A DNA stretch of 64,000 nt from an uncultured Poribacteria bacterium. GTDB lineage: Bacteria > Poribacteria > WGA-4E > WGA-3G. The stretch spans positions 4,224,001 to 4,288,000 of the forward strand of contig OX638351.1 of the NCBI GenBank assembly GCA_951813565.1, in the 5' to 3' direction. A program made the translations under genes and the position numbers. The notes under the pieces are model-generated. The model was not told the origin of the DNA. It did no database searches and worked only from the letters and a program-made list of their open reading frames with translations. This document shows, piece after piece, positions 8,208 to 60,006 of this stretch (its first letter is position 1; every line of letters begins with the position of its first letter).

Positions 8208-8245
8208 AATGTTCGAGGCGCAATGAATTGCGCGACTACAAACGC
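8208..8245 (-). repeat. REP-like palindrome (empty allele of the site at 47648-47719)
   Basis: Reverse complement GCGTTTGTAGTCGCGCAATTCATTGCGCCTCGAACATT matches 47648-47719 apart from 2 substitutions and a 34-bp insertion there. Confidence 0.75.
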
Positions 8246-41841: not shown

Positions 41842-43119
41842 ATGGCAACGTTAGAAGGTTTCAGAGTGAGAAATTTCGGAGTTCTCAAGGATGTGACACT
41901 CGGTCGTCTTTGGGACAGACAGAAGGAAGAAGCACTAACTCCAATGACTGCAATAATCGGAAAAAATGGGGTCGGTAAGAGTGCTTTATTTGATGCTTTC
42001 GGTTTCTTGTCCGATGCGCTTAACTTTAATAATATTGAGGAGGCTTGTGATGCACGTGGACGTGGCGGCTTTAATAAAATGCGAACGCAAGGGGCAACAG
42101 TTCCTATTGAATTTGATGTGTACTACAGAGAACACGGAAATGCCAGACCGATTACATACCAAATTGCCATTGCCATGGACAAATTTGGACGTCCTTATGT
42201 GCTGCGAGAACGTCTTCGACAGAGGCGTAAGGGACAGAAGCGTGGTTGGCCCTTTTCTTTTTTAATGTTAAATGACGGTAATGGTGTAGCATGGAAAGGT
42301 GAGCAAGTAGGACTTCAAATTATCGAAGAAACAGAAGATTTTGATCTTTTCAAAGAATTGAGAAAAGAAAGAGAATCTGGAGAAACAGAAAATATTGAAT
42401 TAGATGATCCTCGAAAACTTGGTATTGCTACACTTGGTGCCTTAAAACAACATCCCCGAATCGCTGCTTTTCGTAGATTCATTGAAGGGTGGTATCTCAG
42501 TTACTTCACTCCCGATGCAGCACGTAGCCTGCCACTTTCGGGACCACAAGAACACTTAAATATTCACGGAGATAACCTTGGCAACGTTGTGCAATTTATG
42601 GAACGCGAACATCCACAACGTTTCAAAGCGATTCTAAAGAAAATCGCTGATAAAATACCAGGGATAGATCAAATTGATACAGAAAAAACGAGTGACGGTA
42701 GATTGTTATTAAGATTTAATGATAAAGGCTTCCAAGATCCTTTTTACGCGCAGCAGATGTCCGATGGGACACTTAAATTATTCGCCTATCTGTTGATGCT
42801 TGAAGATCCAACTCCACCTCCGTTTATTTGTATTGAGGAACCGGAAAACGGCTTGTACCATAAACTATTAGAAATTCTCGCTACCGAATTCCGAGAACAT
42901 GCAACGGGACTTAAAGGTGGCTCACAGGTTTTTGTTACGACGCATCAGCCATACTTTGTTGATGCATTAGGCCCGAAAGAGGTTTGGATTCTGGAAAAGG
43001 GCGAAGATGGGTTTTCTAATATTCGTCGAGCAAGTGAAGATACGCTCGTGAACAACCTTGTTGAGGAGGGACTTCCCTTGGGTGGACTTTGGTACAGTGA
43101 CTATCTCGATCCGAGGTGA
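41842..43119 (+). CDS. AAA_21-type ABC ATPase
   Basis: Walker A GKNGVGKS, QMSDGTLK, ICIEEPENGL, VTTHQPY. Confidence 0.85.
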   Translation: MATLEGFRVRNFGVLKDVTLGRLWDRQKEEALTPMTAIIGKNGVGKSALFDAFGFLSDALNFNNIEEACDARGRGGFNKMRTQGATVPIEFDVYYREHGNARPITYQIAIAMDKFGRPYVLRERLRQRRKGQKRGWPFSFLMLNDGNGVAWKGEQVGLQIIEETEDFDLFKELRKERESGETENIELDDPRKLGIATLGALKQHPRIAAFRRFIEGWYLSYFTPDAARSLPLSGPQEHLNIHGDNLGNVVQFMEREHPQRFKAILKKIADKIPGIDQIDTEKTSDGRLLLRFNDKGFQDPFYAQQMSDGTLKLFAYLLMLEDPTPPPFICIEEPENGLYHKLLEILATEFREHATGLKGGSQVFVTTHQPYFVDALGPKEVWILEKGEDGFSNIRRASEDTLVNNLVEEGLPLGGLWYSDYLDPR

Positions 43120-43122
43120 TAA

Positions 43123-43773
43123 ATGCACTTTGAAATACTTGTTGAAGACTTGTCAGGCAAGGCAACACTTGACATTTTAATGCCTAAGATTATTGGAAAA
43201 CAACATACGTGTAGAGTTATTAGTTACCGAGGAATCGGTCATATTCCTAAAGACCTCAAGAGTCACACCGATGCACATAATCGTATTTTGCTTGATCGTT
43301 TGCCTGAACTACTCAAAGGGTACGGAAAGACATATATCAACAATCCTGCCAAATATTCAACAGTGTTGATTGTGGTATGTGATTTAGATGATAAATGTTT
43401 GAAAAAAATTCGTCAAAAACTTCTTGATATGTTAAATGAGTGTAAACCCGAAATAGAAACCCGGTTTTGTATTGCCGTGGAAGAGGGTGAAGCATGGTTT
43501 CTTGGCGATCTCTCCGCTATCAAGAAAGCTTATCCAAAAGCCAAAAACAATATACTTAACCGTTACCAGAACGACTCCATTTGTGACACGTGGGAACTTC
43601 TGGCTGATGCAATATTTGTGGGAGGTTCAAGTAAATTAAAAATAAGAGGGGGGCAGGCTGTTGGTAGGGAAAAATCAACATGGGCAGAGAAAATAACTCC
43701 ATATATGGATGTCAGTAAAAACAAGTCAAAAAGTTTCTGTTATTTTCGTGATAAAATCCGAGAACTAATCTGA
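43123..43773 (+). CDS. DUF4276-like / TOPRIM-like protein
   Basis: HFEILVED, VVCDLDD (DxD), EEGEAWFLGD, NKSKSF; 3 bp after the ATPase stop. Confidence 0.65.
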   Translation: MHFEILVEDLSGKATLDILMPKIIGKQHTCRVISYRGIGHIPKDLKSHTDAHNRILLDRLPELLKGYGKTYINNPAKYSTVLIVVCDLDDKCLKKIRQKLLDMLNECKPEIETRFCIAVEEGEAWFLGDLSAIKKAYPKAKNNILNRYQNDSICDTWELLADAIFVGGSSKLKIRGGQAVGREKSTWAEKITPYMDVSKNKSKSFCYFRDKIRELI

Positions 43774-43950
43774 ATATCCTCATTAAACTCTCAATTGATT
43801 GAAAGTGAATTGACGGTAAAGTTCAATCCTTACCCTTTTTCTTGAAAAAAGAAATTTACCATATTCTTAACAAATTCTTGAGAAAACAAGAACAACGGTG
43901 AAGAGGGAAAGATTTAGCTGAGCTGGTTATGGATAGCATCCTACCTTTAG

Positions 43951-44183
43951 TTAGGCGAAGGTATAGTTTTGCAATTCTAACTCTGAAGGAAAAATTGTTA
44001 AAGGGTTTGCTGTGCCTGAAGCAATATGGAATGTATCCTCCAGTCTTACTCCGCCTGTTCCAGGGACAGAAAGAACTGGGTGTCCGACGGTTACAGTCAT
44101 TCCCTCACGAATTTGAATGCCGGAATCGCCAGGGTGGATTGTAGGCGCTGGTGTCTCCTCAAAACTTAAACCGATGCTATGAC
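43951..44183 (-). pseudogene. C-terminal fragment of an M24 (Xaa-Pro/creatinase) peptidase
   Basis: Manual translation HSIGLSFEETPAPTIHPGDSGIQIREGMTVTVGHPVLSVPGTGGVRLEDTFHI...FA-stop, cut at a MITE. Confidence 0.7.
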
Positions 44184-44278
44184 TTATACCAAATTAACGA
44201 GAATTGCATTGTTTTCATTGCCGATGGTAAGGGCGGGCACAGAGACCCGCCCCTACGATTTAGGGTAATTTGGTATAA
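44184..44278. mobile_element. 95-bp MITE with IS630-like ends containing a REP unit
   Basis: TIRs TTATACCAAATTA / TAATTTGGTATAA resemble the IS630 ends at 60380 and 61538; internal GGGCGGGCACAGAGACCCGCCCCTAC. Confidence 0.7.
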
Positions 44279-44402
44279 CATCATATAGCACATATTCAAA
44301 TATGTCAAATTTTCGACCTGTTTTACTTTGCACACCCTATTGCAATATCCCCTCAAATATGCTAAACTATTGAATACCGTTTATGTAAATGAAGGAGAGA
44401 GA

Positions 44403-45422
44403 ATGAAAACAACAGTTAGTATTGTAGACGATGCATTTTATATTAATGAGGAAATCACCTATCAGGGACGATCCTACGAAGGCAACAAGATTGAAGGTTT
44501 GCTGCTTAACAGTCGCATGGTGCAAGGCATTTTTGATGATCGGAACTCGGAAACTATACACCGATGGGAATATCCGGACACAGGCAAATGGGATACCGAA
44601 CGTAACACACGTGAATTTTTAGCTGCGATGCCAACATGGCGTGCACACGGCGTGCTGGCATTCACTATTAACCTGCAAGGTGGCAGTCCTGAAGGCTATT
44701 CTAAATCTCAACCTTGGCACAATTCTGGGATAGAAGCGGATGGAAGCCTAAACACAGATTATCTTTCACGACTCCAAAGAATAATTGATTTTGCGGATGA
44801 ACTTGGAATGGTTGTTATTCTCGGCTATTTCTATTTTGGGCAAGACCATCGACTCACCGATGAAGATGCAGTAATTCGTGCTACGGCCAACGCTACCCAA
44901 TGGCTCTTTGATAACGGCTATACTAACGTTATTGTTGAGGTTAACAATGAATGCAACGTAAGATATTCCCATGAGATTCTACAACCACAAAGGGTTCATG
45001 AACTAATTGAGCGGGTAAAATCTACAACGCAAAACGGAAGGAAATATCTGGTTGGGACAAGTTATGGCGGTGGTCGCGTGCCGTTAGAAAATGTTGTTCG
45101 CGCCTCAGATTTTCTGCTTGTTCACGGTAACGGAGTCAAGGACCCGAACCGAATCGTTGAAATGGTACAACAGACGCGCAAAGTGCCAGGATATCGTCCA
45201 ATGCCGATCCTATTTAACGAAGATGACCACTTCGATTTTGACAAACCATTTAATAACTGCATCGCTGCTATCAGTCAATACGCTTCATGGGGCTATTTTG
45301 ATCCGGGTGAAAATGACTACCATCACGGATACCAATCTGTACCTGTGCAATGGCAGATTAACACACCAAGAAAACGTGGCTTTTTTCAATTAATAAGCAA
45401 GATCACAGGACATAACGCTTAG
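44403..45422 (+). CDS. Putative glycoside hydrolase (clan GH-A TIM barrel-like)
   Basis: GAAGGAG RBS; ADELGMVVILGYFY, VEVNNEC, LLVHGN, ILFNEDD. Confidence 0.55.
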   Translation: MKTTVSIVDDAFYINEEITYQGRSYEGNKIEGLLLNSRMVQGIFDDRNSETIHRWEYPDTGKWDTERNTREFLAAMPTWRAHGVLAFTINLQGGSPEGYSKSQPWHNSGIEADGSLNTDYLSRLQRIIDFADELGMVVILGYFYFGQDHRLTDEDAVIRATANATQWLFDNGYTNVIVEVNNECNVRYSHEILQPQRVHELIERVKSTTQNGRKYLVGTSYGGGRVPLENVVRASDFLLVHGNGVKDPNRIVEMVQQTRKVPGYRPMPILFNEDDHFDFDKPFNNCIAAISQYASWGYFDPGENDYHHGYQSVPVQWQINTPRKRGFFQLISKITGHNA

Positions 45423-45437
45423 AAAGGAATACTAAGA

Positions 45438-46205
45438 ATGCCAGAAGGAATTCAACCGTACCATTTTGCCATTGCAATTGGTGTTATTATTTTGATCGCG
45501 ACAAGTGTCCGAATTCTCAAAGAATACGAACGCGCTGTTATCTTCCGATTAGGACGACTCACAGGCACACGCGGTCCTGGTCTCGTGCTGATGATACCGT
45601 TCTGGATTGAACGGATGCAACGTATTAGTCTAAGGGCTATCGTCAATGATGTAACCCCACAAGATGTAATTACAAAAGACAATGTATCCGTTAGTGTCAA
45701 CGCAGTACTGATGTTCAGAGTAATCGAAGCAGATAAGGCAGTTATTGAGGTAGAAGACTTCGGATTTGCAATTGGTCAGATCGCACAAACAACACTCCGA
45801 AGTGTGCTTGGACGCGCAGAACTTGACGACCTATTATCTGACCGAGACAAACTAAATCAGGATTTAGAGGAAATTATTAAAAAGCAGTGTGAACCGTGGG
45901 GAGTTGAAGTACAAGCAATGGAAATTAAGCACGTTGACCTACCAGTAGAAATGCAACGGGCAATGGCAAAACAAGCAGAAGCGGAACGGGAACGAAGAGC
46001 AAAAGTAGTGCATGCTGAAGGTGAATTTGAATCTGCAGATATCCTAACCAACGCCGCTGAAATCCTGAGTAAAACACCTACCTCTATACAATTACGATTT
46101 CTACAGGCATTGGTAGAAGTGAGCGCGGAGAAAAATTCAACTGTCATCTTCCCAATTCCGATTGATTTATTGACCCCATTTCTGAATAAGGAGGAGAATG
46201 AATAA
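45438..46205 (+). CDS. SPFH/stomatin-like (slipin) protein
   Basis: [43 protein letters not shown]. Confidence 0.93.
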
Positions 46206-46226
46206 GAAAAAGATATAATGCTTTAA

Positions 46227-47282
46227 CTACCAGTCCTCATCAAAGAAAGGCGTACTGGGGTAGTTGTAAACATTACCCTCATAGTTTCGGAGTTGGATTT
46301 CATCGTCATCAAAAGCGACAACTGGATCAGGCATTAATGCTATTTTACCGCCGCCGCCTGGCGCATCAATCACATAGTGCGGTACACCCAGTCCAGAAAT
46401 ATGTCCACGTAACGAAGCGACAATATCTAATCCCGTTTTAACTGCTGTCCGGAAATGGTCTGTGCCAACTACAAGGTCAGCTTGATAGATGTAATACGGC
46501 TTGACACGAATCCGCAATAACGCCTTCATCAGTTCTACCATCACCGCTGGATCGTCATTCACACCTTTGAGCAACACTGTCTGGTTGCCGAGTGGAATTC
46601 CCGCATCAGCTAACATACCGCATGCTTTTTCCGTTTCAGGTGTAATTTCACGAGGATGGTTGAAATGTGTGTTGATATAAAAAGGGTGGTATCGTTTTAG
46701 AATTGTGCACAACTCAGGGGTAATTCGTTGTGGCAATGTTACCGGCACTCGTGAACCTATTCGGATGATCTCCAAATGTTCTATAGCACGCAATCCACCT
46801 ACGATCATCTCAATTTTCTTATCTGTCAACATTAGTGGGTCACCACCAGAAATAATAACATCTCGAATCTCTGGGTGAGATTGAATATAAGCAAGTCCGG
46901 TCTCAATATTATTTTCTGAAATGGAATGCGGGTCACCGACCTTCCGTTTGCGAGTGCAAAAACGGCAATAAATAGGACACATATAATTGACATAAAAGAG
47001 GGCACGGTCAGGGTATCGGTGCGTGACATTTGGCACTTCACTATCGTCTTCTTCGTGAAGCGGGTCCTCTACACCTGTGCTGATTAACTCACGGGTATCT
47101 GGGACTACTTGTTTCCAAATAGGATCCCCCGGTTTTTCTATAAGACTGAGATAATAAGGGTTGATGCGGATCGGAAATTCTTTGTGGATGCGCCGCATCT
47201 CTTCTACGTCAACGTCAAATACAGCCGCGAGTTTTTCTGGTGTGTTAACAGTATCTCTAACAAGTTGTTTCCATTCTTCCAT
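46227..47282 (-). CDS. KamA-family radical SAM protein (lysine 2,3-aminomutase-like)
   Basis: THRYPDR, CPIYCRFCTRKR, SGGDPL, HFNHPRE, DAPGGGGK. Confidence 0.9.
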   Translation of the reverse strand: MEEWKQLVRDTVNTPEKLAAVFDVDVEEMRRIHKEFPIRINPYYLSLIEKPGDPIWKQVVPDTRELISTGVEDPLHEEDDSEVPNVTHRYPDRALFYVNYMCPIYCRFCTRKRKVGDPHSISENNIETGLAYIQSHPEIRDVIISGGDPLMLTDKKIEMIVGGLRAIEHLEIIRIGSRVPVTLPQRITPELCTILKRYHPFYINTHFNHPREITPETEKACGMLADAGIPLGNQTVLLKGVNDDPAVMVELMKALLRIRVKPYYIYQADLVVGTDHFRTAVKTGLDIVASLRGHISGLGVPHYVIDAPGGGGKIALMPDPVVAFDDDEIQLRNYEGNVYNYPSTPFFDEDW

Positions 47283-47622
47283 ATATGCGATCCTCTAACA
47301 AATATAATTGATACGCTTACTGGGATACTTTCAGGAGAAAGTTAAATTATTACGTTTCCTTTATCTGTTTTAAGCGTTACAAATAAGTAACTGAGTAATT
47401 TTTACCAAAATTTTTTAAACAATAAGAAAAATAAACCGTTTCTCTACATAAACGAATTCATGATACATTTATTTAAGCCAGAAGTCAAGGGAAATATTGG
47501 CAGTTAGGTGTGTAAATATTTGGTTACATAGGTTCAATTTGCAATGATTACGCGGCGTTTTCCACTGTAGGGCGGGGTCCCGGGGAATGCCAAAAGGCAT
47601 TCATACCGTTGATTTGGTGCCC

Positions 47623-47883
47623 CATAGGCGTCAATTTAAGAAATAACGCGTTTGTAGTTGCGCAATTCATTGCCAAATCAACGCCAAATACGCTTATGGT
47701 ATTTGGCGCCTCGGACATTCTGTAGGAGCGACCTCCTGGTCGCGACCCGACAAATACCATACGGGAATGCCATAAAGGCATTCATACCGTTGATTTGGCG
47801 TTGATTCGAGGTCGTGCCTACAAGAAGAAAATGTGAATCATTGGCCATGCAACAAGCAATCAGGCACTAAATTGACAGTTATG
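47623..47883. mobile_element. CATAGG-family element
   Basis: CATAGGCGTCAATTTAAG ... CTAAATTGACAGTTATG; degenerate ~19-bp flanking repeat. Confidence 0.6.
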
Positions 47884-47906
47884 GGCTGGGTCGCTGTGCC
47901 CCGCCC

Positions 47907-48261
47907 CATAGGTGTAAACTTAAGGATTTTAACCTCTGTTTTTCTGTTTCAGCCCGCCAAATGCGTTATGCACGTTTGGCGTTGATTTGGACATGGTAGT
48001 AGGCACGCGCCGCGTGCCGTCCACAAGTGAATAGATTACGGCGGACGGAGTATGCCTACTACTTTGCATTGCACATCTTTTCTTAAGTTGACACTATGTG
48101 TCTCCTGTGTTTAACCCAATAGGTGTAAACTTAAGGATACACCTTCTTGTGGGAGGGGTTTTCAACCCCGATTTACTTGGTTGAATCTCGAAAATCGGTC
48201 GGACAAGGTCTCCCTCCCACAAGAGAAAATCCAGCATTTTTTTCTTAAGTTTACACCTATG
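47907..48261. mobile_element. Tandem pair of CATAGG-family elements with perfect 19-bp TSD
   Basis: Units 47907-48098 and 48118-48261 are separated by exactly 19 bp. GGGTCGCTGTGCCCCGCCC occurs at 47888-47906 and 48262-48280. Confidence 0.8.
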
Positions 48262-48519
48262 GGGTCGCTGTGCCCCGCCCCTACAATAGGAGTTGTGCGG
48301 ATTTCTACAAAAACTTTACACACCCTAAAGAGGGTTTCCGTTTTGTGCGTTATGTCTTGATTTGGTAACATAAACAGTGAACCAATTTCTTATATCGACT
48401 CCCGTTTGAAAAAATTGTCCAAAGTTTAGTAACATTTAAAAATCTTGTAAAATAACAATTAATGTAATATAGTTAAACATTATGGGAAATTGTGGAAAAG
48501 AGGTATTCATAACGTTACC

Positions 48520-48549
48520 TTGACATTCTTTAGTTTAATGTGTTACTCT
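48520..48549 (+). promoter_or_regulatory. Putative promoter of disA
   Basis: TTGACA-18 nt-TACTCT with TG extension. Confidence 0.4.
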
Positions 48550-48566
48550 TATTTTAACAGTGGGAG

Positions 48567-49682
48567 GTGAGAGTCGTGCTCAAAATTCCAACCGAAAATC
48601 AGAAGGAACGTGAACTCGTCGCCACCTTGAAACTACTATCCCCGGGCACTTCTCTACGAGAAGGTATTGATTATATTATCCAAGCCAAGACGGGGGGATT
48701 GATAGTTGTTGGGGATACGCCCGAAATCCTAAATTTGACGGAAAGTGGCTTTCGGATTAATTGCCCGTATACACCGACACGCCTATCCGAGTTAGCAAAA
48801 ATGGATGGTGCTATTATCCTTTCATCGGATATGAAACGGATAGTGCGTGCTAATGTCACTTTAATGTCAAACACATCTGTTGTCTCAAATGAAACTGGAT
48901 TACGCCATCGTGCAGCAGAAAAATTTGCTAAGGAAACTGGGCATATATTAATTGCTATTTCAAGGCGTCGAAATACACTTACACTATACACGAGAAATCA
49001 GCGTTATATTTTTCGTGAACGTCCAGTTCTGATCTCCGGTGCCAACCAAACCATGCTTGCACTAACCCAATACGTTAAAACCATGCAGCATGTTGTTGCC
49101 ACACTAAACTGGGCAGAACTAAACGGGACAGTAACTTTATCTAATGTAATTATGGCTATTCAAGTCTGTGAACGGGTTAGACGAACAGAACACGAATTAA
49201 ACCGATACCGGATCGAATTAGGCACAGAAGCACAATCCCTTCAACTCATCCCATCAGCATTATTAACAGAAATTGAAAGAGCTTTGCTCATCATTAAAGA
49301 TTATTATAGAGAGGAAGAAAGAGACGAATATCAAGCATTTGAACATATTCTTGGACTTAGCGCGACTGACTTAGCTGCAGAGAGTAGTATAAGTGAAGCA
49401 CTTGGCTATCCACGGGATTTTAACGACTATGTAGAAATATTAGCACCGCGCGGGTATCGAATGCTAAGCCAAATACCGCGTATTCCGATGAGTATAGTTG
49501 AAAATATCGTCCAAAACTTCAAAACGTTAGATGCAATCATCACATCAAACATTGGTGCGCTCCAAAACATTAAAGGTGTTGGAAAAACGCGCGCAACAGC
49601 AATTAAAGAGGCGCTTGTTCAAATGAAAACAGGAACATCACAACCGCAGGTTTTAGCATTACCTATTTTTGATTGGGATTAA
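48567..49682 (+). CDS. disA: DNA integrity scanning diadenylate cyclase
   Basis: PGTSLREG, LAKMDGAIIL (DGA), TGLRHRAAE (RHR), PRGYRML, C-terminal HhH IKGVGKTRA. Confidence 0.88.
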   Translation: MRVVLKIPTENQKERELVATLKLLSPGTSLREGIDYIIQAKTGGLIVVGDTPEILNLTESGFRINCPYTPTRLSELAKMDGAIILSSDMKRIVRANVTLMSNTSVVSNETGLRHRAAEKFAKETGHILIAISRRRNTLTLYTRNQRYIFRERPVLISGANQTMLALTQYVKTMQHVVATLNWAELNGTVTLSNVIMAIQVCERVRRTEHELNRYRIELGTEAQSLQLIPSALLTEIERALLIIKDYYREEERDEYQAFEHILGLSATDLAAESSISEALGYPRDFNDYVEILAPRGYRMLSQIPRIPMSIVENIVQNFKTLDAIITSNIGALQNIKGVGKTRATAIKEALVQMKTGTSQPQVLALPIFDWD

Positions 49683-49786
49683 AAAGGGGAGTCTTAATTT
49701 TGAGGGCATAGAATATACCTGCGTGATTAACAACAGTAGACATAAATATCATTCAAATTTGAAATTTATAGGATAGGAGTTTAATT

Positions 49787-51130
49787 ATGAAACAATTTCA
49801 TGTTACTTTAGAGCGGAAAATGTTATTAAAACGTTATCAGTTATTCAGTAGGGTTCTTTTTTCTTGTTTGTTCATTTTTCCGATTTTTCTTGCCGCATGT
49901 GGCGCAAAACTCGGAACAATTCAACAGCAAGATGTTGACACACAACTAACCCAAGCAGAAAAGGCGATCAAATCAGCTCGTGAAGTAAATGCGCCTTCCC
50001 TTGCTTTTGAGGAGTTTGAGCAAGCAGAAACCTATCTCGAAAAAGCAAGAGAAGCATTGGACGAAAACAATGGGGTTGACGCACTTCGATTTGCTACCCA
50101 AACTATCACTCATGCGAAAATTGCCCAGCGAAAAGCAGTGCATAACACAAAAAATGCTGAATTAAACGCTAACATCTTAGAAAAAGATGCCCTCATTGTT
50201 GAACTTAGAAAAGATATTAATACGAAAAAAACTGAAATTACAGGCTTAGAAAATGGAATCCAGCAACTTCGTGAGAATGAAACGGGACTCCAACGAACTA
50301 TTCGCACACTTGAAAATGAAAAACGTGAGCTGGCGGATACTGGCAAAATCAGTGAGCGAAAAGCTACTGAGCTTAATGAGGTACTGAAATCGCTTCAAGC
50401 AAGAGTCGCGCGTTCTGAAACAGATGTCCATAATTACGGCTTGCAAGTGAAGGAACTCTCTCGGAAGCTTGAAGTTGCTGAAACGATGGCTAAATCGGCA
50501 AGTAAACAAAAACGCGCTGTAGTCGCTGAGGCTGAATCTCTCAGAAAACAGTTACGGGAACAAGCTAAGGTTTACACTGGTATGTTGGAAAAAGCCAAGA
50601 AGCAGAATATCGCAGCTGAACATCAGGAATATATGAAAAAGACAGCAGAGCAATCACGCGAATTCTCGAAACAACTGCCAAGTAACAAATCCCCACGCAC
50701 CCGTCGGACATCGCTTTCTACTGCACAAATTAATGCTGGAAAAGCAGTGCTTAGTAAATGGGAAAAAGAATGGAATAGCAAAAATGTTGATACACATCTT
50801 GCGTTCTACATCCCAAATTTTACTGTCAAAAAAATTCTTGTTCAAGAAAGCAAAGAAAATGAGAGCATCATTGACCCCAGTCAAATTGCGGCTGCCTTTC
50901 GTGAGATGAACGCACAATCTTGGGGAAAAAAAGAGAGTTTTTCTGAAGTAGAACAAGAAAGTGTCATCGGAACTTATAGTTTCAGTCGATTAGTTACGCC
51001 GGCTCAAACAGAGGATGATACCGCTTTATACGATTACTGGACCAGAGAAGTATGGTGCCATCAGGTTCAAGGTGAATGGAAAATTTATCGAGAAACTTGG
51101 CAAATTTATGAAAATATTCCCGAACTGTAA
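49787..51130 (+). CDS. Lipoprotein: DUF4398-like helix pair, long coiled coil, C-terminal NTF2-like domain
   Basis: Lipobox LAAC, AEKAIKSAREVNA, heptads, WEKEWNSKNVD...GEWKIYRE. Confidence 0.6.
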   Translation: MKQFHVTLERKMLLKRYQLFSRVLFSCLFIFPIFLAACGAKLGTIQQQDVDTQLTQAEKAIKSAREVNAPSLAFEEFEQAETYLEKAREALDENNGVDALRFATQTITHAKIAQRKAVHNTKNAELNANILEKDALIVELRKDINTKKTEITGLENGIQQLRENETGLQRTIRTLENEKRELADTGKISERKATELNEVLKSLQARVARSETDVHNYGLQVKELSRKLEVAETMAKSASKQKRAVVAEAESLRKQLREQAKVYTGMLEKAKKQNIAAEHQEYMKKTAEQSREFSKQLPSNKSPRTRRTSLSTAQINAGKAVLSKWEKEWNSKNVDTHLAFYIPNFTVKKILVQESKENESIIDPSQIAAAFREMNAQSWGKKESFSEVEQESVIGTYSFSRLVTPAQTEDDTALYDYWTREVWCHQVQGEWKIYRETWQIYENIPEL

Positions 51131-51136
51131 GGAGGT

Positions 51137-52564
51137 TTGCAGATGAACAATTTTCCAAACGCTACACAGAACACTTCTAAAATTACTTTGCCAGATTCCC
51201 TTAAATGGGGAGGAATCGTAGTTTTAATTGCTATTTTCGCTATAGGAGGCTTCCTACTCACGCGTTCCAGTGAAACGCCAGCCGGATTTTTAGCGAAATG
51301 GAAGAATGCGATTGAATCCGGGAATCTTACAGATTACCGTGCTCTCTGGTCAAAAAATGATAGAGATCGGCTTAATTCAGATTATGAGGACACCGCTCAG
51401 CTTTTTGAAGATGAAATCCAAATTGAAGTCAATATTGCTAATGCTGTAGATAAAACACGTAAGAATCCTCAAAATCCAAATTACTTGAGCATTGAAGAAA
51501 TCCCTATCCTTGTGCATACCGATGGCGAGCCAGTGATTCAATTAAGAACGCTTACTATTGCCAAAACAGGACTCATTCGACAACGCTGGAAACTCATTAG
51601 AGATGAAGTCGTAAATCAAGAATTTGGTTCTGATCTCTCCGCATTTGAGGTGGTAAGTTCGGAAATTTCAGTTGCAAACGGAACGCAATCTAACAGTCCT
51701 GTTGCCCCGTTAGTTATAGAGTGGAAAAAAGCGCTTGAGTCTCAAGATGAAAAGAAGTACATCTCACTTTGGGATAAATCATCTCGACAAAAGCGAAAAA
51801 CTAATTTTCAACTTGCTCGCCTGCAGCTCTCCCAAGAGGCGGATGTTGATTTAAGCCAAGCGACCTATTCCCTTGTTGCACACTCAAAAACTCGACACGT
51901 AGTTGACAATATAAGTGTTACAATCCGTAGCGGTAGCACAATCATAGAAACACAATCCCGTACGCTAACGATTGAGAAGAAAGGTTTCTTTTTTAGACGC
52001 TGGAAGCTTATTAATGATGCGGTCGGAGGCGATGGTATTACAGATCAGCCTATTTCCCAACACGACCAACCGGATGTTGACGCTATGTCAGAAGAAGCCG
52101 CCTCAGGTATCTACAACGGTGATGCGCCAATTGATACACAACTCAAAGTAAGCCAGATTCTCGGTAAATGGCAGAGATCATGGGAAGAGAAAGACCTTGA
52201 TACCTATATGTCTATCTATGCCGAAAGAGCGCTCATCACCCGCGTCACCGTGCGAGATGGAAAGGAGACACCTATCTATTTGAGAAAAAAACAACTCCGA
52301 CAGAAAATGAAGCAGTTAAATCAACGTTACTCCGATATTCAGGTTAAGATATCTAATCTGGAGATTAACGGGGATCGGGCTGTCGCTGACACTACATTTT
52401 TGCAAGAATTCAAGGGGACACCTGCATCGGGCAGTCGTCCAGCATATTCCGATTTTGGTACCAAAAAATTGATCCTAATGATTGATCCTGCTGATGGATA
52501 TTGGAAAATATATGCCGAAACGTGGAGTCGTTACGAGGATGTTCCTAAATATCCCCAAAACTAA
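51137..52564 (+). CDS. Membrane-anchored protein with three NTF2/SnoaL-like repeats
   Basis: N-terminal TM; repeats WKNAIES...RWKLI, WKKALES...RWKLI, WQRSWEE...YWKIY. Confidence 0.6.
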   Translation: MQMNNFPNATQNTSKITLPDSLKWGGIVVLIAIFAIGGFLLTRSSETPAGFLAKWKNAIESGNLTDYRALWSKNDRDRLNSDYEDTAQLFEDEIQIEVNIANAVDKTRKNPQNPNYLSIEEIPILVHTDGEPVIQLRTLTIAKTGLIRQRWKLIRDEVVNQEFGSDLSAFEVVSSEISVANGTQSNSPVAPLVIEWKKALESQDEKKYISLWDKSSRQKRKTNFQLARLQLSQEADVDLSQATYSLVAHSKTRHVVDNISVTIRSGSTIIETQSRTLTIEKKGFFFRRWKLINDAVGGDGITDQPISQHDQPDVDAMSEEAASGIYNGDAPIDTQLKVSQILGKWQRSWEEKDLDTYMSIYAERALITRVTVRDGKETPIYLRKKQLRQKMKQLNQRYSDIQVKISNLEINGDRAVADTTFLQEFKGTPASGSRPAYSDFGTKKLILMIDPADGYWKIYAETWSRYEDVPKYPQN

Positions 52565-52641
52565 AATCTATTTAACAATGAATTAGATGGTAGAAACGGA
52601 TATTTGCTATTCCCGGTAGGAACAATGTCTAATCAACACAA

Positions 52642-53055
52642 ATGCACACTGAATACCGAACCAAACGAAAGATAGAATTTGCCGATACGGATATGGCAGG
52701 TATCGTCCATTTTTCGCGATTTTTTATCTTCATGGAGGCTGCAGAACACGAATTTCTACGCAGTTTAGGAACCACTGTCGCCACTGAATGGAATGGAGAT
52801 AAAATTGGGTGGCCTCGACTTACCGCCTCCTGTGAATATCTTAGCCCACTACGATTTGAAGATGAAGTGGACATCCGACTTTGGGTGTCTAAAAAAGGGA
52901 CAAAGTCACTCACATATCAATTTCACTTTACCCACGAAGGTAAAGATATTGCGCGCGGACAACTCACGACAGTCTGTTGTATTACAAATCCGGGTGAAAA
53001 AATACGCGCCATTCCCATCCCTGAGTTCATCATTTCACAAATTGTCGTACAGTAA
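52642..53055 (+). CDS. Acyl-CoA thioesterase (4HBT family)
   Basis: FADTDMAGIVHFS, EYLSPLRFED. Confidence 0.88.
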   Translation: MHTEYRTKRKIEFADTDMAGIVHFSRFFIFMEAAEHEFLRSLGTTVATEWNGDKIGWPRLTASCEYLSPLRFEDEVDIRLWVSKKGTKSLTYQFHFTHEGKDIARGQLTTVCCITNPGEKIRAIPIPEFIISQIVVQ

Positions 53056-53116
53056 TATTCGTCCGTGTCTTGTGCTGTAGTGCCAAAATCCCATCTAAAA
53101 TCGCCTTCCAAAAAAT

Positions 53117-53830
53117 ATGAAAGAAACTACAGATAAAACACATCAGCTTAAAATTTCAAACCTGTCTAAAGACTTTGGAGACATTCAGGTTTTACGAGAT
53201 ATTTCATTCAGCTTCAGTTCAGGAACGTCAGTGGCTATTACTGGTCCTTCCGGGTCTGGCAAAAGCACACTCTTGCACATCATTGGCACCTTAGAAAATC
53301 CTTCAGACGGACAAGTTGAGATTAACGGCACTGACCCCTTTAAACTTTCTGAACCCGAACTCGCACGCTATCGGAATGCTGTAATTGGGTTTGTGTTCCA
53401 AGATCATCATCTCCTTCCACAATATTCTGTGCTTGAAAATGTACTCATCCCAACACTTGCCTTTGAACAAGAGGCTGATGCGCCACAACTCGCGCAAGAA
53501 ATCATCAGACGTGTAGGGCTGACTGATCGCATTTCACATCGTCCTGCGGAACTTTCTGGTGGTGAACGTCAAAGAGTTGCAATCGCCCGCGCCCTCATCA
53601 ACAAACCGAGTATTCTTCTCTGCGATGAACCAACTGGCAACCTTGATACAACCACTGCTGGGACCATATCGAATCTGCTTTTTGAACTGCACCGTGTAGA
53701 ACGAAACATCTTAATCGTTGTAACGCACAACCTTGAATTTGCTGGCAGGTTTGAAAACCGTCTTAAACTTACTGATGGTGTGTGCACTTTAGAAACGGTG
53801 AGTGGTGAACAATCTGAAAAAAATGATTGA
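53117..53830 (+). CDS. ABC ATP-binding protein (LolD/MacB type)
   Basis: GPSGSGKST, GFVFQ, LSGGERQR, CDEPTGNLD. Confidence 0.92.
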   Translation: MKETTDKTHQLKISNLSKDFGDIQVLRDISFSFSSGTSVAITGPSGSGKSTLLHIIGTLENPSDGQVEINGTDPFKLSEPELARYRNAVIGFVFQDHHLLPQYSVLENVLIPTLAFEQEADAPQLAQEIIRRVGLTDRISHRPAELSGGERQRVAIARALINKPSILLCDEPTGNLDTTTAGTISNLLFELHRVERNILIVVTHNLEFAGRFENRLKLTDGVCTLETVSGEQSEKND

Positions 53831-53835
53831 TATGA

Positions 53836-56800
53836 GTGGTGTTCACAATTATGCGTACATTTTGGAGAACTGCAAAACATTATTGGCAAATTCATCTTAT
53901 TGTTGCACTTTGCACTGCTGTAGCAACAGGTGTGCTTGCTGGTGCGTTGATTGTAGGAGATTCCATGCGGGGTAGCCTGCGCGATATTACGTTGGAACGC
54001 CTCGGCACAATTCAGCACACGCTCATCGCCGACCATTTTTTTCAACCAGAGATATTAAATCGACAGAATATGGTGCCAGCAATTCTGCTGAACGGAACCG
54101 TTGTTGCATCAGAAACCGATGCTCGTGCTTCAAAGGTTAATATCTACGGTATCAAAAATAACTTCTTCAGTTTGTGGAAACAGGACGCTGTTCCCAATTT
54201 AAGTGACGCATCCGATAAACCATTTGCAGATATTGTTATTAACGAGGCACTTCAAAAGGAATTGAATGTACAGGTCGGGGATGCAATAATAGTTAATATT
54301 CCACAAACATCTGAAATCCATCCAGAATTCCTACTCGGTAAGCGAGACGCCGCCGATGTCATCCAAAAACTACGTGTAGTTGTCAGTGATGTTATTCCTA
54401 CTGAGAATGTGGGGAGATTTAGTCTCCATGCACATCAAAGCCTTCCGCTGAATGCATACATCTCACTCCCTATTTTGCAAAAAGCACTTGCGCAATCCGG
54501 TAAAGTAAACGCACTGTTTTCTGCTGATGCTGATCCAATTACATCAGACACTTTAACTTTGACATTAGGGGAACTTGGCTTATACATTACTGAACACGAA
54601 AATCACATTGACCTACAAAGTTGGCACTACCTTCTTGAGCCAGTGTTATCGGAAGTAGCATTATTGGTCGCATCAGAAAATAGCATTCCAGCACTTCCTA
54701 CCTTAACCTATCTTGCAAACACAATGTCTGTTATTAACGAATCCGAAAATGAAACTGCAGATGAATCCGCAAATGTGCCGTATTCCTCAATTCTTGCGCT
54801 TCCTATTGACAATATAGGGTTTACAGCACTTCTGCGTGAATTCATGACTGAAGATGAACAGGCTGCTTATGCTCAGGCACAACAGCAAGAACGCAAAAGA
54901 CGCGCATCAAAGAAAAGAGAAGAAATCAAAAATGTTGAAATAGAAAGCAGCAGAATAGAAAAAGAGATCACTGAACTTAAAAATACAAAACGGGCACTCA
55001 GAAGTACCCCAGAATATAAACAAAAATTGGCTGAAGTAGAAAGTGCACTATCAGAAGTGAAAAAGAGAATTGACACACTCAATCTCCCAATTGAACCTTC
55101 TGAAATTTACCTCAATACGTGGGCAGCGGACAACCTCGGAGCGAAAGTCGGGAATAAAATTAACATTACCTATTTTCGCGTCAATCCTCAAGAAAACTAC
55201 ATTTCAGAAACAGCTCAGTTTCTATTAAAAGGTATCGTGCCTATTGAAGGTATTGCTGCAGACACAAACTTAATTCCTGATTTTCCCGGTATTCACGACA
55301 AAGCCGATATATCCGAATGGGAACCGCCTTTTCCTTTTGACAGCAGCCTTATTCGTGACAATGACAAAGAATATTGGGATGAGTACAAAGCAACTCCGAA
55401 AGCGTTTGTTCCTATAGATATCGGCAAACGTCTTTGGCAAAATCGATTTGGTGACCTTACCACTATTCGGATGGGAACTGCACCAGGACAGGATATAGGC
55501 GCAACGAGGACACTTTTTGAAAACGAATTCCTCAAAATGATTAAGCCGGAACAGATTGGATTCCAATTCATACCTCTCCAAGAAGAGGGACTTAAAGCAT
55601 CTTCTGGTTCCACAGATTTTGGAATGCTATTTAGCAGTCTAAGTTTTTTTATTATATTAGCTGCTGCAACGCTTGTTAGCACAATCTTCGCCATTGGTGT
55701 TTCGCAACGGTCGCGTGAAATCGGTATACTACAGGCTGTTGGCTACCCACTGGCCAAAATCCGACGTCGTTTTCTTTTTGAGGGAATCTTTATTGCAAGT
55801 ATCGGAAGCCTATTGGGATGTCTACTTGCTATTGGATATGCACGGTTGATGATATTTGGCTTGCAAACGTGGTGGTTACCGGCTATCGGCACCCCTTTTA
55901 TCGATCTCCATATAAGCAGATGGAGTTTACTTATCGGCATCCTTGTGACACTTGCAGTTGTTACATTTTTCATCCGCCATGTTATCAAAAGACTTGGCAA
56001 GGCACCAACTGCAGCACTCCTTTCAGGGGAGACCGATTTTGATGAGACATCCCGCAAATATAAACCGCAAACTGTCAAAGTGTCAAGAATTGAGACAACA
56101 AGAATTTCAATATTTATCATTGGTCTCTTTTTTGGCACCATGGATAGGGGAAAACTCTTTACGGGAGATTGGAGTGGAATTATTATTGTTATCTTACTGG
56201 CAGCTTGCGGACTATTTGGTATCCGTTTAGCACGTCGAAGAGACGATGGAACAAACCCTAACCTTACCCTCAAAAACATAAAAATAAGTACTATTTTCTT
56301 CTGTATTGGACTCGTTGTTGGTGTATTAGTAGGTTATTTTCCCTTTGGTAGAAGCATTTCTGACGCAGTTATTACATTTTTTGAGCATCCAGTAGTAAAA
56401 TTTTTAATACTTACAATTACAATCCTTTCCTTGGGTTGGTTAATTTTTGACAGATGGTTAGGTTCACAGAGGGTCCCGAAACGTCTAAGCCGTCTGAGGT
56501 TTGGACTTAAAAATGCAGCATGGCAACCGCAAAATAGCCAAGGTTCTATTATAATCATGAGTTTAGCGTGCTGTATTATTGTTGCTGTCGGGGCAAACCG
56601 TCATGATGCTGCACCAGAGACTGAATATGCTTTTGTTGCCGAATCTTCTCTACCTTTACATCACAGTCTAAATACACCTGATGGAAGATATGAACTCGGA
56701 TTTAATGAAAAAGCTTCTGAATTACTGTCTACATCAGAAGTTTTTCCGTTTCGCGTCTTACCGGGGGAAGATGTTAGTTGTCTTAATCTCTACCAACCCA

Positions 56801-57597
56801 AAAAGCCGCAGATTTTAGGGGCATCAGATGCTATGCTAAACGAGAAGCCATGGCAAAGTCTAAAATTGGATAACGATCAAGCAAGGAAAATACACGCTAT
56901 CGGTGATGAGAAGTCGTTGCGTTGGATTCTTCATCATGATCCAAAGGAAGATTTTCTTATCCAAGATGAGTTTGGAAAATCGTTATTGTTGGAGCTTGAA
57001 ACGGTGGAAAACAGTCTTTTTCAGAGTCAATTGATTATCTCCGAAACCGATTTCACTAAATACTTTCCGAGTCAAAGCGGGTATCAATTTTTTCTTATCA
57101 AAACACCGCCTGAACTGCGAAAAGAAACATTGCAGACACTTGAGAAAAGTTTGGAGGACTATGGCTTTGACGTGACGTCAGCATCAGAACGGTTAGTAAG
57201 CTATCGTGCTGTTGAAAACACCTATATCTCCACTTTCCAAAGTCTTGGAGGGTTAGGCGTACTACTTGGCACTTTCGGTTTAGCACTGGTACTATTTAGA
57301 AACATCATTGAACGTCGGGGGGAATTAGCAACTTTGCGCGCCTTCGGTTTCCAACGGCAGCTGCTTTCCAGAATGTTGCTCCTTGAAAGCTGCTTCCTTC
57401 TAACTATTGGTATGCTTATCGGGATTGCAGCTGGACTTATAGCCGTTCTCGGTTCACAAGGACATTTGCCATCATTCCCATGGATTTCTCTTGCGATTAC
57501 CTTGTTATTTATCTTTGGGTTTGGTATAATTGCAAATAGTATTGCTGTTGCTGTGGCACTCCGAAGCCCGTTGTTGTTAACCTTGAAAACAGAATAG
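53836..57597 (+). CDS. Large FtsX/MacB-type ABC permease
   Basis: Two FtsX domains (QRSREIGILQAVG; ERRGELATLRAFG) and large periplasmic domains. Confidence 0.88.
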   Translation: MVFTIMRTFWRTAKHYWQIHLIVALCTAVATGVLAGALIVGDSMRGSLRDITLERLGTIQHTLIADHFFQPEILNRQNMVPAILLNGTVVASETDARASKVNIYGIKNNFFSLWKQDAVPNLSDASDKPFADIVINEALQKELNVQVGDAIIVNIPQTSEIHPEFLLGKRDAADVIQKLRVVVSDVIPTENVGRFSLHAHQSLPLNAYISLPILQKALAQSGKVNALFSADADPITSDTLTLTLGELGLYITEHENHIDLQSWHYLLEPVLSEVALLVASENSIPALPTLTYLANTMSVINESENETADESANVPYSSILALPIDNIGFTALLREFMTEDEQAAYAQAQQQERKRRASKKREEIKNVEIESSRIEKEITELKNTKRALRSTPEYKQKLAEVESALSEVKKRIDTLNLPIEPSEIYLNTWAADNLGAKVGNKINITYFRVNPQENYISETAQFLLKGIVPIEGIAADTNLIPDFPGIHDKADISEWEPPFPFDSSLIRDNDKEYWDEYKATPKAFVPIDIGKRLWQNRFGDLTTIRMGTAPGQDIGATRTLFENEFLKMIKPEQIGFQFIPLQEEGLKASSGSTDFGMLFSSLSFFIILAAATLVSTIFAIGVSQRSREIGILQAVGYPLAKIRRRFLFEGIFIASIGSLLGCLLAIGYARLMIFGLQTWWLPAIGTPFIDLHISRWSLLIGILVTLAVVTFFIRHVIKRLGKAPTAALLSGETDFDETSRKYKPQTVKVSRIETTRISIFIIGLFFGTMDRGKLFTGDWSGIIIVILLAACGLFGIRLARRRDDGTNPNLTLKNIKISTIFFCIGLVVGVLVGYFPFGRSISDAVITFFEHPVVKFLILTITILSLGWLIFDRWLGSQRVPKRLSRLRFGLKNAAWQPQNSQGSIIIMSLACCIIVAVGANRHDAAPETEYAFVAESSLPLHHSLNTPDGRYELGFNEKASELLSTSEVFPFRVLPGEDVSCLNLYQPKKPQILGASDAMLNEKPWQSLKLDNDQARKIHAIGDEKSLRWILHHDPKEDFLIQDEFGKSLLLELETVENSLFQSQLIISETDFTKYFPSQSGYQFFLIKTPPELRKETLQTLEKSLEDYGFDVTSASERLVSYRAVENTYISTFQSLGGLGVLLGTFGLALVLFRNIIERRGELATLRAFGFQRQLLSRMLLLESCFLLTIGMLIGIAAGLIAVLGSQGHLPSFPWISLAITLLFIFGFGIIANSIAVAVALRSPLLLTLKTE

Positions 57598-57617
57598 CCT
57601 GTGAAGAACACACAACC

Positions 57618-57931
57618 CATAGGTGTCAACTTAAGGATATATCCTCTTGTGGGAGTGAATCAACGCAGCATGCCGGACGGGGAATGCCAACAGGCATTCA
57701 TACCCGCTGAATACCAAAAGCGTATTCAGCGTTGATTTGGCCAAATGCCTAAATGGCATTTGTAGCGTTGATTTCTTGATTTGGCGCATGCTGCGTTGAT
57801 TTGGATGAATACCACAGGTGTATTCATCGTTGATTTGGATTTAATAGGTTGAGCTTCACAATATCGGGCGGACCAGGTCTCCCTCCCACAAGAGACAATC
57901 TGGTAATTATGTGCTTAAGTTGACACCTATG
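57618..57931. mobile_element. CATAGG-family element expanded by nested hairpin modules
   Basis: Perfect 18-bp TIRs CATAGGTGTCAACTTAAG / CTTAAGTTGACACCTATG; internal CGTTGATTTGG modules at about 57658-57804. Confidence 0.8.
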
Positions 57932-57956
57932 GTCAGTAAAGAACACAATCCGAAAC

Positions 57957-58565
57957 GTGGTACAAGAAGTGAGTATGATGCGTTCTGTTTGGACAATTCC
58001 CGCAATTTTTATATTCCTTTTCCCGCTTCTAACACAGGTGGGTTGTTCAAGTGACACGGAAAAGGCTACTGCTTCGGCCATGAATCACACAGAACAGGGG
58101 TGGCATGCTTACAGATCAGGTGACTATACACAGGCGCTGCTCAGTTTTGAACGGGCTCTCAATATTGATCCGGAATTCGCAGATGCACATAATGGTGTTG
58201 GATGGAGTCATCTGAGTCTTTCGCTCACGCTACCATTAGTACAAGAAGCCTTTCAAAATGCTGTGCGCTACGATGCGTCTAACGCTGACGCATGGGTTGG
58301 CTTGGCAAATGTGCTCTACTTAAGGTACAAAGATAGTTCTGATTTCAACGCCGCTATCCGAGCAATTGATAATGCACTACAAGCAGACGCACAATACCTC
58401 TACCGACATGATTATCAGTCCAACGCTGAACTGTTTGCGCTGAAAGCTGCATGTTATTTCTATCTCGGTCAGAATCAATTAGCAAAACAAGAGGTTGACA
58501 AAGCACTAAAAATTGATGCTGAAAACAGAGCAGTCATTGTGCTACAAAATATGTTGAAGGAATAA
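57957..58565 (+). CDS. TPR-repeat lipoprotein
   Basis: QVGC lipobox-like, ALLSFERALNIDPEFADAHNGVG TPR. Start may be a few codons downstream. Confidence 0.8.
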   Translation: MVQEVSMMRSVWTIPAIFIFLFPLLTQVGCSSDTEKATASAMNHTEQGWHAYRSGDYTQALLSFERALNIDPEFADAHNGVGWSHLSLSLTLPLVQEAFQNAVRYDASNADAWVGLANVLYLRYKDSSDFNAAIRAIDNALQADAQYLYRHDYQSNAELFALKAACYFYLGQNQLAKQEVDKALKIDAENRAVIVLQNMLKE

Positions 58566-58593
58566 TCTATAATTTAAAATTTGGGAGATAAAT

Positions 58594-59499
58594 ATGTCAC
58601 AAAATGTTATTACATCTACAAATTTAACGAACTTTACGCCAGCGCACCGTGGCAAAGTCCGTGATCTTTATGACCTCGGAGATGAATTTCTGATTGTGTC
58701 TACCGATAGAATATCAGCCTTTGATGTTGTCTTACCCAACGGTATTCCAGATAAAGGAAGGGTTTTAACCGGATTGTCCAAGTTCTGGTTCAATTACACC
58801 AACTCTGTTGTAGAAAACCACGTTATAGCAACGGACGTTGAAGAATATCCTGAAGCGTTACATGTTGATGCCGAACTCTTAAATGGACGTTCAATGCTTG
58901 TCCGCAAAGCAAAACGTGTTGATGTTGAATGTGTTGTACGTGGTTATCTCGCAGGTTCAGGATGGGCGTCGTATCAGAAAACGGGCGAGATATGTGGGCA
59001 AAAACTGCCAGCGGGATTACGCGAATCGGAACAGTTACCGGAACTTCTTTTTACACCAACAACAAAGGCGGAGCAAGGTGAGCATGATGAACCTATCTCT
59101 ATTGACCAAATGCGTGATGAAGTCGGCACCGATCTAACGGATCAACTGATAGAAATCAGTTTCGCACTGTTCAGAGCAGCAAGTCAACATGCTGAAAAAT
59201 CAGGTATCATTCTCTGTGACACAAAATTTGAATTTGGTCAATGTGACGGTGAGTTGATACTAATAGATGAAGTATTCACACCGGATTCATCGCGTTTTTG
59301 GCCAGCAAATCTGTATGAACCTGGGAAGCCACAGCAGAGTTTTGATAAGCAGTTCGTTCGGGACTATCTCTCTGAGATCGGTTGGAACAAACAACCACCT
59401 GCACCTGAATTACCAGACGCCGTAATCAGTAAAACCAGTGAAAAATACCGAGAAGCGTATAAGTTGATAGTTGGTGAGGAACTGCAAGAACTTTCTTGA
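58594..59499 (+). CDS. purC: Phosphoribosylaminoimidazole-succinocarboxamide synthase
   Basis: GKVRDLY, DRISAFD, ECVVRGYLAGSG, DTKFEFG, DEVFTPDSSRFW, FDKQFVRD. Confidence 0.97.
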   Translation: MSQNVITSTNLTNFTPAHRGKVRDLYDLGDEFLIVSTDRISAFDVVLPNGIPDKGRVLTGLSKFWFNYTNSVVENHVIATDVEEYPEALHVDAELLNGRSMLVRKAKRVDVECVVRGYLAGSGWASYQKTGEICGQKLPAGLRESEQLPELLFTPTTKAEQGEHDEPISIDQMRDEVGTDLTDQLIEISFALFRAASQHAEKSGIILCDTKFEFGQCDGELILIDEVFTPDSSRFWPANLYEPGKPQQSFDKQFVRDYLSEIGWNKQPPAPELPDAVISKTSEKYREAYKLIVGEELQELS

Positions 59500-59526
59500 A
59501 ATAACACCAATCAAAAGCGGTGCCCT

Positions 59527-60006
59527 TTATTCCACATAAAAAAGATGGCTACGCTCAAAGAGTCCATCAAGAAAAATTTCAACAAACCACTCACCTGTTG
59601 CGAATTGGTCACCGCTTAACCCACCTTTTGGGGCATCAATGTAAAACCATGTGATTTTTTCGCCAGTTGTTGAAGAAATAGTCCTTTCTTCGTTCCAAAA
59701 TGGCGGATCGTCCAAGTCGTCTTCAGGTGAAAACCACGAAACTTCTACTGTATGTGATTCGTCTATATTTTCCCATAAAAGCCATAAATACACTTGGTCG
59801 TTTACTTCAGCACTAAACGTATCCGTGATACCGTCTGGGCGGTCTTCGTGAACTGAAAGTGCCAAAACTGATTCTAAAATATTAGGTTCTCCGCGTCCGA
59901 GGTCAATTGCACCACTTCCCCCTGAAGTAGTTTCATCGCAACCATTCAAAACAACTAAAAAGGGTAGCAACATTACCGCAAAAAATAATGTGTATATTCG
60001 CTTCAT
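59527..60006 (-). CDS. Hypothetical lipoprotein
   Basis: AAGGAG RBS, lipobox LNGC, beta-rich domain ending GEWFVEIFLDG. Confidence 0.7.
   Translation of the reverse strand: MKRIYTLFFAVMLLPFLVVLNGCDETTSGGSGAIDLGRGEPNILESVLALSVHEDRPDGITDTFSAEVNDQVYLWLLWENIDESHTVEVSWFSPEDDLDDPPFWNEERTISSTTGEKITWFYIDAPKGGLSGDQFATGEWFVEIFLDGLFERSHLFYVE

Follow-up and report, generated by a model that had tools for sequence, protein, structure and literature searches.

The window studied here is a stretch of 64,000 nucleotides from a single-contig genome of 5.43 Mb and 43% GC (G000), which belongs to a genus of sponge-symbiont Poribacteria. It holds 11 recognisable tails, plus remnants, of a very small non-coding repeat that we call the module: a hairpin with CG on both sides, followed by TTGATT and 1-2 more nucleotides, 33-35 bp in total. 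Its core (CG, stem-loop and CG) takes 27-29 nt, and the stem comes in two subtypes, a plain stem of 10 bp and a bulged one. The modules and their surroundings are listed below.

8208-8245, minus strand: empty paralogous copy of the REP at 47648-47719
12393-12426, minus: plain module, C(G) ending
12427-12436, minus: tail-only remnant of a second module, its hairpin probably lost between its two CG
47507-48324, no strand: MITE-like carrier of REPs and modules, bounded by inverted repeats similar to those of the ISKra4-like IS in this genome
47581-47616, plus: bulged-stem module, TG ending, inside a GTAG-headed REP starting at 47567
47648-47719, plus: filled host REP, GTAG head at 47654
47674-47708, minus: plain-stem module, TG ending, hairpin z = -4.5
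47674-47707, minus: the 34-bp insert formed by the module 47674-47708, at a C^G step of a GTAG-headed REP
47748-47807, plus: outer plain module, C ending, right arm partly missing, the missing part probably deleted between short direct repeats
47762-47797, plus: bulged module nested at C^G in the loop of the outer module 47748-47807
47955-47989, plus: plain module, TG ending
57618-57931, no strand: MITE-like carrier of the 57.6-57.8 kb mosaic, 18-bp inverted repeats
57658-57803, plus: outer module with two tails (the inverted one at 57658-57663; left arm starting at 57664; right arm with its tail at 57784-57803)
57678-57783, plus: bulged module in the loop of 57658-57803, interrupted at its 3' foot, tail 57776-57783
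57705-57739, plus: plain module, TG ending, inserted before the module 57740-57775
57740-57775, plus: bulged module, TC ending, standing in place of the closing G of its host
57804-57837, plus: plain module, TG ending, in tandem behind the outer module 57658-57803

All copies that the earlier note had listed from the letters of the window were found where it had put them, and the modules inside modules at 47762 and 57705 are confirmed. The same note had paired 8208-8245 (reverse complement) with 47648-47719 as an empty and a filled site. The difference is indeed exactly 34 bp with a 2-nt GC slip, accompanied by two flank substitutions that were left unmentioned, and one site is filled where the other is empty; however, the two are paralogous REP copies and not alleles of one locus. 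Double-tailed palindromic modules, with a tail on both sides, occur in 8 simple copies in G000, and also at L342, L350, L393 and L398; they probably reflect deletion between two inverted modules.

Among the matches listed, the spacer holding these elements measures 1285 bp in G000 versus 360-366 bp in six close relatives, which indicates an insertion of the mosaic as a whole: a MITE-like carrier along with its REPs and modules. In more distant relatives (L021, L023-L040) the spacer contains one more small gene; a remnant is all that is left of it in G000 and its closest kin, at 47283-47500 of the window. Inverted repeats resembling those of the 24-copy ISKra4-like IS bound the MITE-like carriers at 47507-48324 and also at 10895 and 31539, and a partial ISKra4-like transposase lies at 11128-12096. 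A short direct-repeat unit at 12487-12527, whose 14-mers occur about 140 times in the genome, represents another small repeat family.

Copy number, folding and distribution

The 11-mer CGTTGATTTGG occurs 8 times in the 64-kb window against 0.07 expected; for the 5.43-Mb genome an order-5 Markov model predicts 11.7 occurrences, and there are 519. A pattern search for arm plus tail found about 920 right ends in G000 versus 1 in the reverse-read control, and modules make up about 0.6% of the genome; the genome-wide search that the earlier note had proposed brought, in other words, hundreds of further copies. Only 9 of 583 scored copies lie inside ORFs, though ORFs cover 78% of G000. The orientation to transcription is nearly balanced, with 274 sense and 223 antisense. 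Rfam gave no matches in the window at gathering score, and modules are not flagged by a terminator scan. These are many dispersed non-coding copies under about 40 bp, as in very small mobile repeats of the SDR type. The tail, described earlier as near-constant, is constant as far as CG-TTGATT-Y, but TGG is only one of three common endings: among 857 right ends TTGATT is followed by TGG in 456, by CAC in 119 and by TCT in 119, and the corresponding numbers of flank clusters (n = 129) are 44, 24 and 2.

The double compensatory change in the stem, pointed out before, is real. Among 24 distinct copies picked by hand, half of the 10 stem pairs (5) have changes on both sides, and covariation amounts to 32 cells versus 10.9 in shuffled data, a count which is inflated by the relatedness of the sequences. 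Hairpins chosen by Watson-Crick pairs only were used for comparing mismatches on the strand that reads hairpin, then tail: G.T exceeds A.C by 39 to 17 in 126 distinct G000 hairpins (p = 0.005) and by 11 to 3 in 33 hairpins of relatives. This excess marks the hairpin-then-tail strand as the folding strand, and the module seems to be selected to fold with its tail at the 3' side, as single-stranded DNA or as RNA. No guide or head like GT[AG]G stands on that strand 5' of the stem foot.

Modules were found in all 36 genomes of the genus, where each of two search patterns matches 35 of 36 and the two together match every one, while 24 genomes from three other families have none. The number per genome goes up to hundreds, and G006 is the richest of the relatives. 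A scan of species genomes gave 119 matching stretches; of the 80 among them that were listed, 79 are labelled Candidatus Poribacteria, and the remaining one has the same REP context. Viral contigs gave no module matches.

Much of the copy number is due to modules being carried along in REPINs and MITEs, which propagate independently. When 149 G000 clusters are divided by setting, the site is the module itself in 53, another repeat in 73 and a low-copy flank in 23. A strict GT[AG]G hairpin was recognised at only 20 of 96 non-self G000 clusters compared with 11 of 150 random intergenic points, and in the REP family of the 8208/47648 pair 124 right junctions are empty and 78 filled genome-wide.

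Gain at orthologous sites and the junctions

Four orthologous pairs of empty and filled sites were found, which adds to the catalogue called for in the earlier note, and two of them lie in frame at gene starts (+33 bp) and not in REPs. From the 155 module loci of relatives 74 could be mapped to G000, most of the loci being in carriers that G000 lacks; the mapped ones include one clean empty/filled pair (+34) and one shared old copy. The latter lies at the start of an ispD-like gene, where the module follows just after the start codon, adds 33 bp in frame and replaces two target bases. Thirty such loci from 40 genomes comprise 6 with a module, 21 empty ones and 3 with an unrelated 33-nt extension, in frame at the same start (L177, L178 and L181, from G016, G028 and G034). 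On the tree, genomes with and without the module are intermingled, as repeated gain or lateral exchange would have it; the number of changes along this tree is left out of account, since the three unrelated extensions were scored on it as filled. The same tandem duplication of about 50 bp, with an empty copy beside a filled one, was seen in two genomes of different clades (L156 in G036 and L180 in G008), and suggests lateral exchange of the site.

A second gene start, at G000:1292616, has the module in G000, G006 and G002 and lacks it in G012, G026 and G036, again with +33 in frame. The other two pairs differ by +34: L097 of G012 versus G000:316706, which is the clean pair mentioned above, and L273 versus G000:1269006, the latter at a C^A step. 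Of 16 candidate sites of G000 four, all single-copy, were followed; for two of them either the alignment failed or none of 5 relatives showed an empty allele, and at another all 5 relatives have the module. In strain-level contigs over positions 43000-60000 of the window (4 runs) the assemblies break at repeats, and there is one 34-bp skip at 57705, with short sides and with the same joined form elsewhere in the genome. RNA runs contained less than 10% of the sequence words.

At gene starts the empty allele has bases that are absent from the filled one, and deletion therefore cannot explain the difference: the short alleles are empty sites, and the module was gained. Further polymorphism, covariation and short alleles that are not deletions are the opposite of what the earlier note had named as grounds for giving up its idea, and its picture of a mobile, non-coding element recognised as a folded single strand, with no long TSD, is borne out by the orthologous sites, the covariation and the bias of G.T over A.C. 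That the module is mobile at all we consider nearly certain.

Junctions were studied in 213 flank clusters, from G000 and 1.4 Mb of relatives' loci that were partly selected for modules; 78 clusters have an empty form and 135 have none. The clusters are not fully independent and the empty forms stem from paralogous repeats, so that p-values overstate. Measured against the core, junctions show a net change of +1 in 38 of the 78 clusters, 0 in 21, -1 in 11 and other in 8, the range being -3 to +2 nt. Most often (23 clusters) a module ending in TG has gone cleanly into a C^G step, adding 34 bp, and in the second class (8) a module ending in C replaces the T of CC^TAC; other classes lose 2-3 target bases. 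A C stands at the end of the left flank in 63 of 78 clusters; for 8 of the remaining 15, the C of a C^G step comes from the target.

The tail allele is coupled both to the hairpin subtype and to the target. After TTGATT, bulged modules (n = 44) have T in 40 cases and C in none, and plain ones (n = 120) have C in 67 and T in 50; since this base follows the subtype, it belongs to the element. CG is the target in 29 of 45 T-allele clusters and in 2 of 33 C-allele clusters, and TA in 3 of 45 and 15 of 33, respectively. According to our reading, the last 1-3 bases of a donor, together with CC or CG on the left, would pair with the target, and copies would tend to land in sites similar to that of the donor. 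In the single-copy event with TG followed by A (the L273 pair) the expected match between the end and the target is absent.

Candidate enzymes and related repeats

Mobilisation in trans by an IS200/IS605-like, RAYT-like or IS110-type enzyme had been suggested, and these possibilities fared differently. IS110 can be set aside: no match was obtained in 40 genomes of the genus, with controls matched in 6 of 14, nor in G000 with a second model. IS91 also gave no match in 40 genomes, with a positive control that was silent too, and Ku was absent from 61 genomes. The three IS605-type families of G000 have unrelated hairpins and other targets (TTAG, TTAA and TCAT), and none of them carries module ends, contrary to the idea of IS200/IS605 ends. 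Transposase genes bearing the module's hairpin and tail at their ends, which the earlier note had proposed to look for, were not found in the inspection of long spans, RAYT genes and IS605-type elements of G000; the search for an autonomous parent with module ends yielded 48 spans above 400 bp, and the 40 longest, on inspection, look like mis-paired ends. A scan of 4154 G000 ORFs for HUH-like motifs gave 16 matches, nine known Y1 genes and seven others.

A RAYT-type Y1 enzyme is still a candidate, but in the 25 RAYT-like genes examined the module never serves as the terminal repeat of the gene itself. Most of them are flanked by REP-like repeats of their own, including the REP families that host the module, and the module is near 4 of them only as an invader. 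RAYT matches were obtained in 31 of 36 genus genomes and Y1 genes in 35 of 39; RAYTs occur as well in 18 of 24 module-free genomes of other families. G023, a single contig that is 92% complete, has 50 modules and no Y1 match, and G010 has 26 modules and no Y1 match. RAYT-type Y1 genes are common and own the REPs that host the module, but none of those examined carries module ends.

Reverse transcriptase matched in 16 of 36 genus genomes and in none of the module-rich G006, G034, G012, G017 and G005; in G000 the reverse transcriptases are beside Cas1 or resemble defence ones. Cas1 matched in 26 of 36 genus genomes and is absent from G006 and G017. At G000:C1:3988994-3996100 (L041, L043) a Cas1 gene adjoins a separate reverse transcriptase and a CRISPR array. 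The sole tyrosine recombinase match of G000, at G000:C1:4771411-4771926 (L390), is short (about 200 aa), and no XerC/XerD pair was detected in this genome. Its IS load is very heavy: there are 28 related TnpB copies, 24 ISKra4-like copies, and clusters of 16, 11 and 10 copies, which we take to be IS1595, IS701 and IS982.

Small dispersed repeats (SDRs) are the nearest precedent. Those of Elhai et al. (2008, Genome Res 18:1484) are reportedly 21-27 nt long, with compensatory hairpins, nested in themselves, riding in minitransposons and with no known enzyme. The module has the traits of SDR-type repeats in its size, compensatory hairpin, nesting in itself and in mini-transposons, and presence or absence at a site. 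It is set apart from the SDRs by another phylum, a greater length (33-35 bp), a fixed TTGATT-Y tail, targets coupled to the allele and small target losses. SDR1-8 of Nostocaceae are cited in PMC3116915, PMC5861425 and PMC4390886. The SMR-A and SMR-B elements of Haloquadratum walsbyi, 80-110 bp long with terminal inverted repeats, have no transposase and no target duplication and insert into palindromes of Y1-related elements, and their mode of mobilisation is called enigmatic (PMC3119063). With SMR-A the module shares the lack of a TSD and the palindromic mobile repeats as targets; it is, however, a third of the size and asymmetric, hairpin and then tail, in contrast to about 110 bp with terminal inverted repeats.

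REP classes and REPINs with their RAYTs (PMC8266576, PMC6006769, PMC3733652, PMC3116915, PMC3184786) are, in the form of GTAG REPs and REPINs, the usual hosts of the module, and similar to it as intergenic hairpins of 20-40 bp with a strand-specific fold; the module differs in being the invader, with no GT[AG]G head 5' of the stem foot on its folding strand and no cognate RAYT gene flanked by it among the 25 examined. PATEs, of which the smallest described has 52 bp (PMC3119063), and IS200/IS605 ends are likewise short, palindromic and without TSD. The module, unlike them, is unrelated in sequence to the palindromes of the three IS605-type families of G000, lacks a fixed 5' target of 4-5 nt, and has a variable 3' junction with loss of target bases. 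GC42 clusters of yeast mitochondria are palindromic mobile repeats of about 40 bp that merge and shuffle, with the enzyme unidentified there and an RNA route suggested (PMC4478555); they are organellar and bear a putative AG target duplication, whereas the module bears none.

A MITE identity was rejected for the asymmetric tail and the lack of a TSD of fixed length, given a net junction change of -3 to +2 nt, and an IS110 non-autonomous element for the lack of the recombinase. An integron core site, an origin from CRISPR repeats and a rule of 'complement of the lost base' were dropped, because the element boundaries or several junction classes do not fit. The guide rule of the IS608 type fits the IS605 ends of G000 and fails on the module on either strand. 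The module behaves like an SDR or an SMR and lacks what defines a REP, a PATE, a MITE or an IS110 element. No publication on this family, or on repeats of this sort in Poribacteria, came up in literature searches, and so the statement that it is not a described family stands for the sequence but not for the kind, which has precedents in SDRs and SMRs. It is an undescribed family of a rare known kind, whose junction rule makes the mechanism testable.

How the module may move

We propose, with a rough probability of 0.45, that the module, a mobile element of 33-35 bp, likely moves as a single strand with the help of a RAYT-type HUH nuclease in trans, and that its own last 1-2 bases would pair with the target. 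The moving unit would be the 10-bp hairpin with TTGATT and 1-2 bases, inserting without long target duplication, mostly into hairpin repeats and into itself. A single-strand intermediate would be joined 3' of a target C by the nuclease, its last 1-2 bases may pair with the target, and trimming during repair could then remove 0-3 target bases. Y1 peel-and-paste is not known to involve such a loss, which counts against a RAYT. Cleavage of single strands by RAYTs takes place at C|T, at C|A and, where the guide is GTGG, at C|C (PMC8266576), and these cut sites fit a left junction that lies nearly always after C. The RAYT reading is also favoured by the REP families that host the module, which flank RAYT genes in the genus, and by the RAYT matches in 31 of 36 genus genomes. 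Against it, C|G, the commonest target of the module, does not figure among the cut sites just named, no RAYT or IS605 end examined carries the module, G023 and G010 gave no Y1 match, RAYTs occur in module-free genomes too, the folding strand has no GTAG-like guide 5' of the stem, the two gene-start insertions lie outside REPs, and few insertion sites have a strict GT[AG]G hairpin.

Template switching by host replication or repair at hairpin-stalled forks, with 1-3 nt of identity per side and no dedicated transposase, is in our opinion an unlikely explanation. It would account for the short shared bases and the 0-3 lost target bases at junctions, for the presence of 126 of 149 G000 clusters in repeats or in the module itself, for the fact that no enzyme tracks the element, and for the 50 copies in the Y1-free G023. 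A tail of 6 invariant nt, a stem whose length is fixed and a left end that always coincides with the hairpin foot suggest, however, recognition by a protein, and 2 nt of identity is little for an unaided template switch. GC skew and gene-strand bias that would mark replichores are almost absent from G000, where a dnaA-like gene lies near 1.96 Mb, and modules show no replichore or local orientation bias, with a skew too weak for a fair test; one of five distance bins gave p = 0.04. Recognition by a protein could also come from an unrecognised nuclease or recombinase specific for the family, for instance a divergent HUH enzyme, which binds the hairpin and the tail. The strict confinement to one genus (36/36 versus 0/24) and the failure of the known candidates speak for it, and the geometry, with 7-8 nt between the stem and the 3' end, is similar to that of substrates of relaxases or of IS605 right ends; yet no long element has module ends, the HUH-like scan mostly returned Y1 genes already known, and we regard such an enzyme as quite improbable.

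Little chance is given by us to a route through RNA, in which a short transcript that stops 7-8 nt past the stem, like a terminator product, would be copied into nicks by a reverse transcriptase, as was reportedly proposed for SDRs. The hairpin with a U-rich tail, the excess of G.U type and a variable junction at what would be the RNA 3' end agree with it, while the lack of reverse transcriptase in five module-rich genomes, the Cas1-linked or defence-like character of those in G000 and the silence of the terminator scan do not. The notion that the module is not independently mobile, being an old insertion spread by hitchhiking in MITEs and REPINs and by gene conversion, with short alleles as deletions, is already largely refuted and very improbable. 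Most copies do lie in larger carriers wholly absent from relatives, and the ispD-like site has signs of lateral exchange (two clades, one tandem duplication), but modules entered dozens of unrelated target families, the empty alleles at single-copy gene starts hold bases missing from the filled ones, and the empty state is widespread (21 of 30 ispD-like loci).

One may extend the proposal of a RAYT-type nuclease in trans and suggest, speculatively and expecting it rather to be wrong than right, that the module is a self-guided parasite of 34 bases of single-stranded DNA, which has no enzyme of its own, uses the RAYT nicks of other repeats or stalled nascent ends, and chooses the site by its own last bases. 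If so, changing two tail bases would retarget the element, which would be the smallest programmable insertion element known and would give a handle on movement of the SDR type. How repeats below 40 bp spread without their own transposase has been a question since SDRs and SMRs were described, and a family with hundreds of copies, 36 genomes, orthologous empty and filled sites and two tail alleles with different targets opens it to direct tests. At gene starts the module adds 11 codons in frame.
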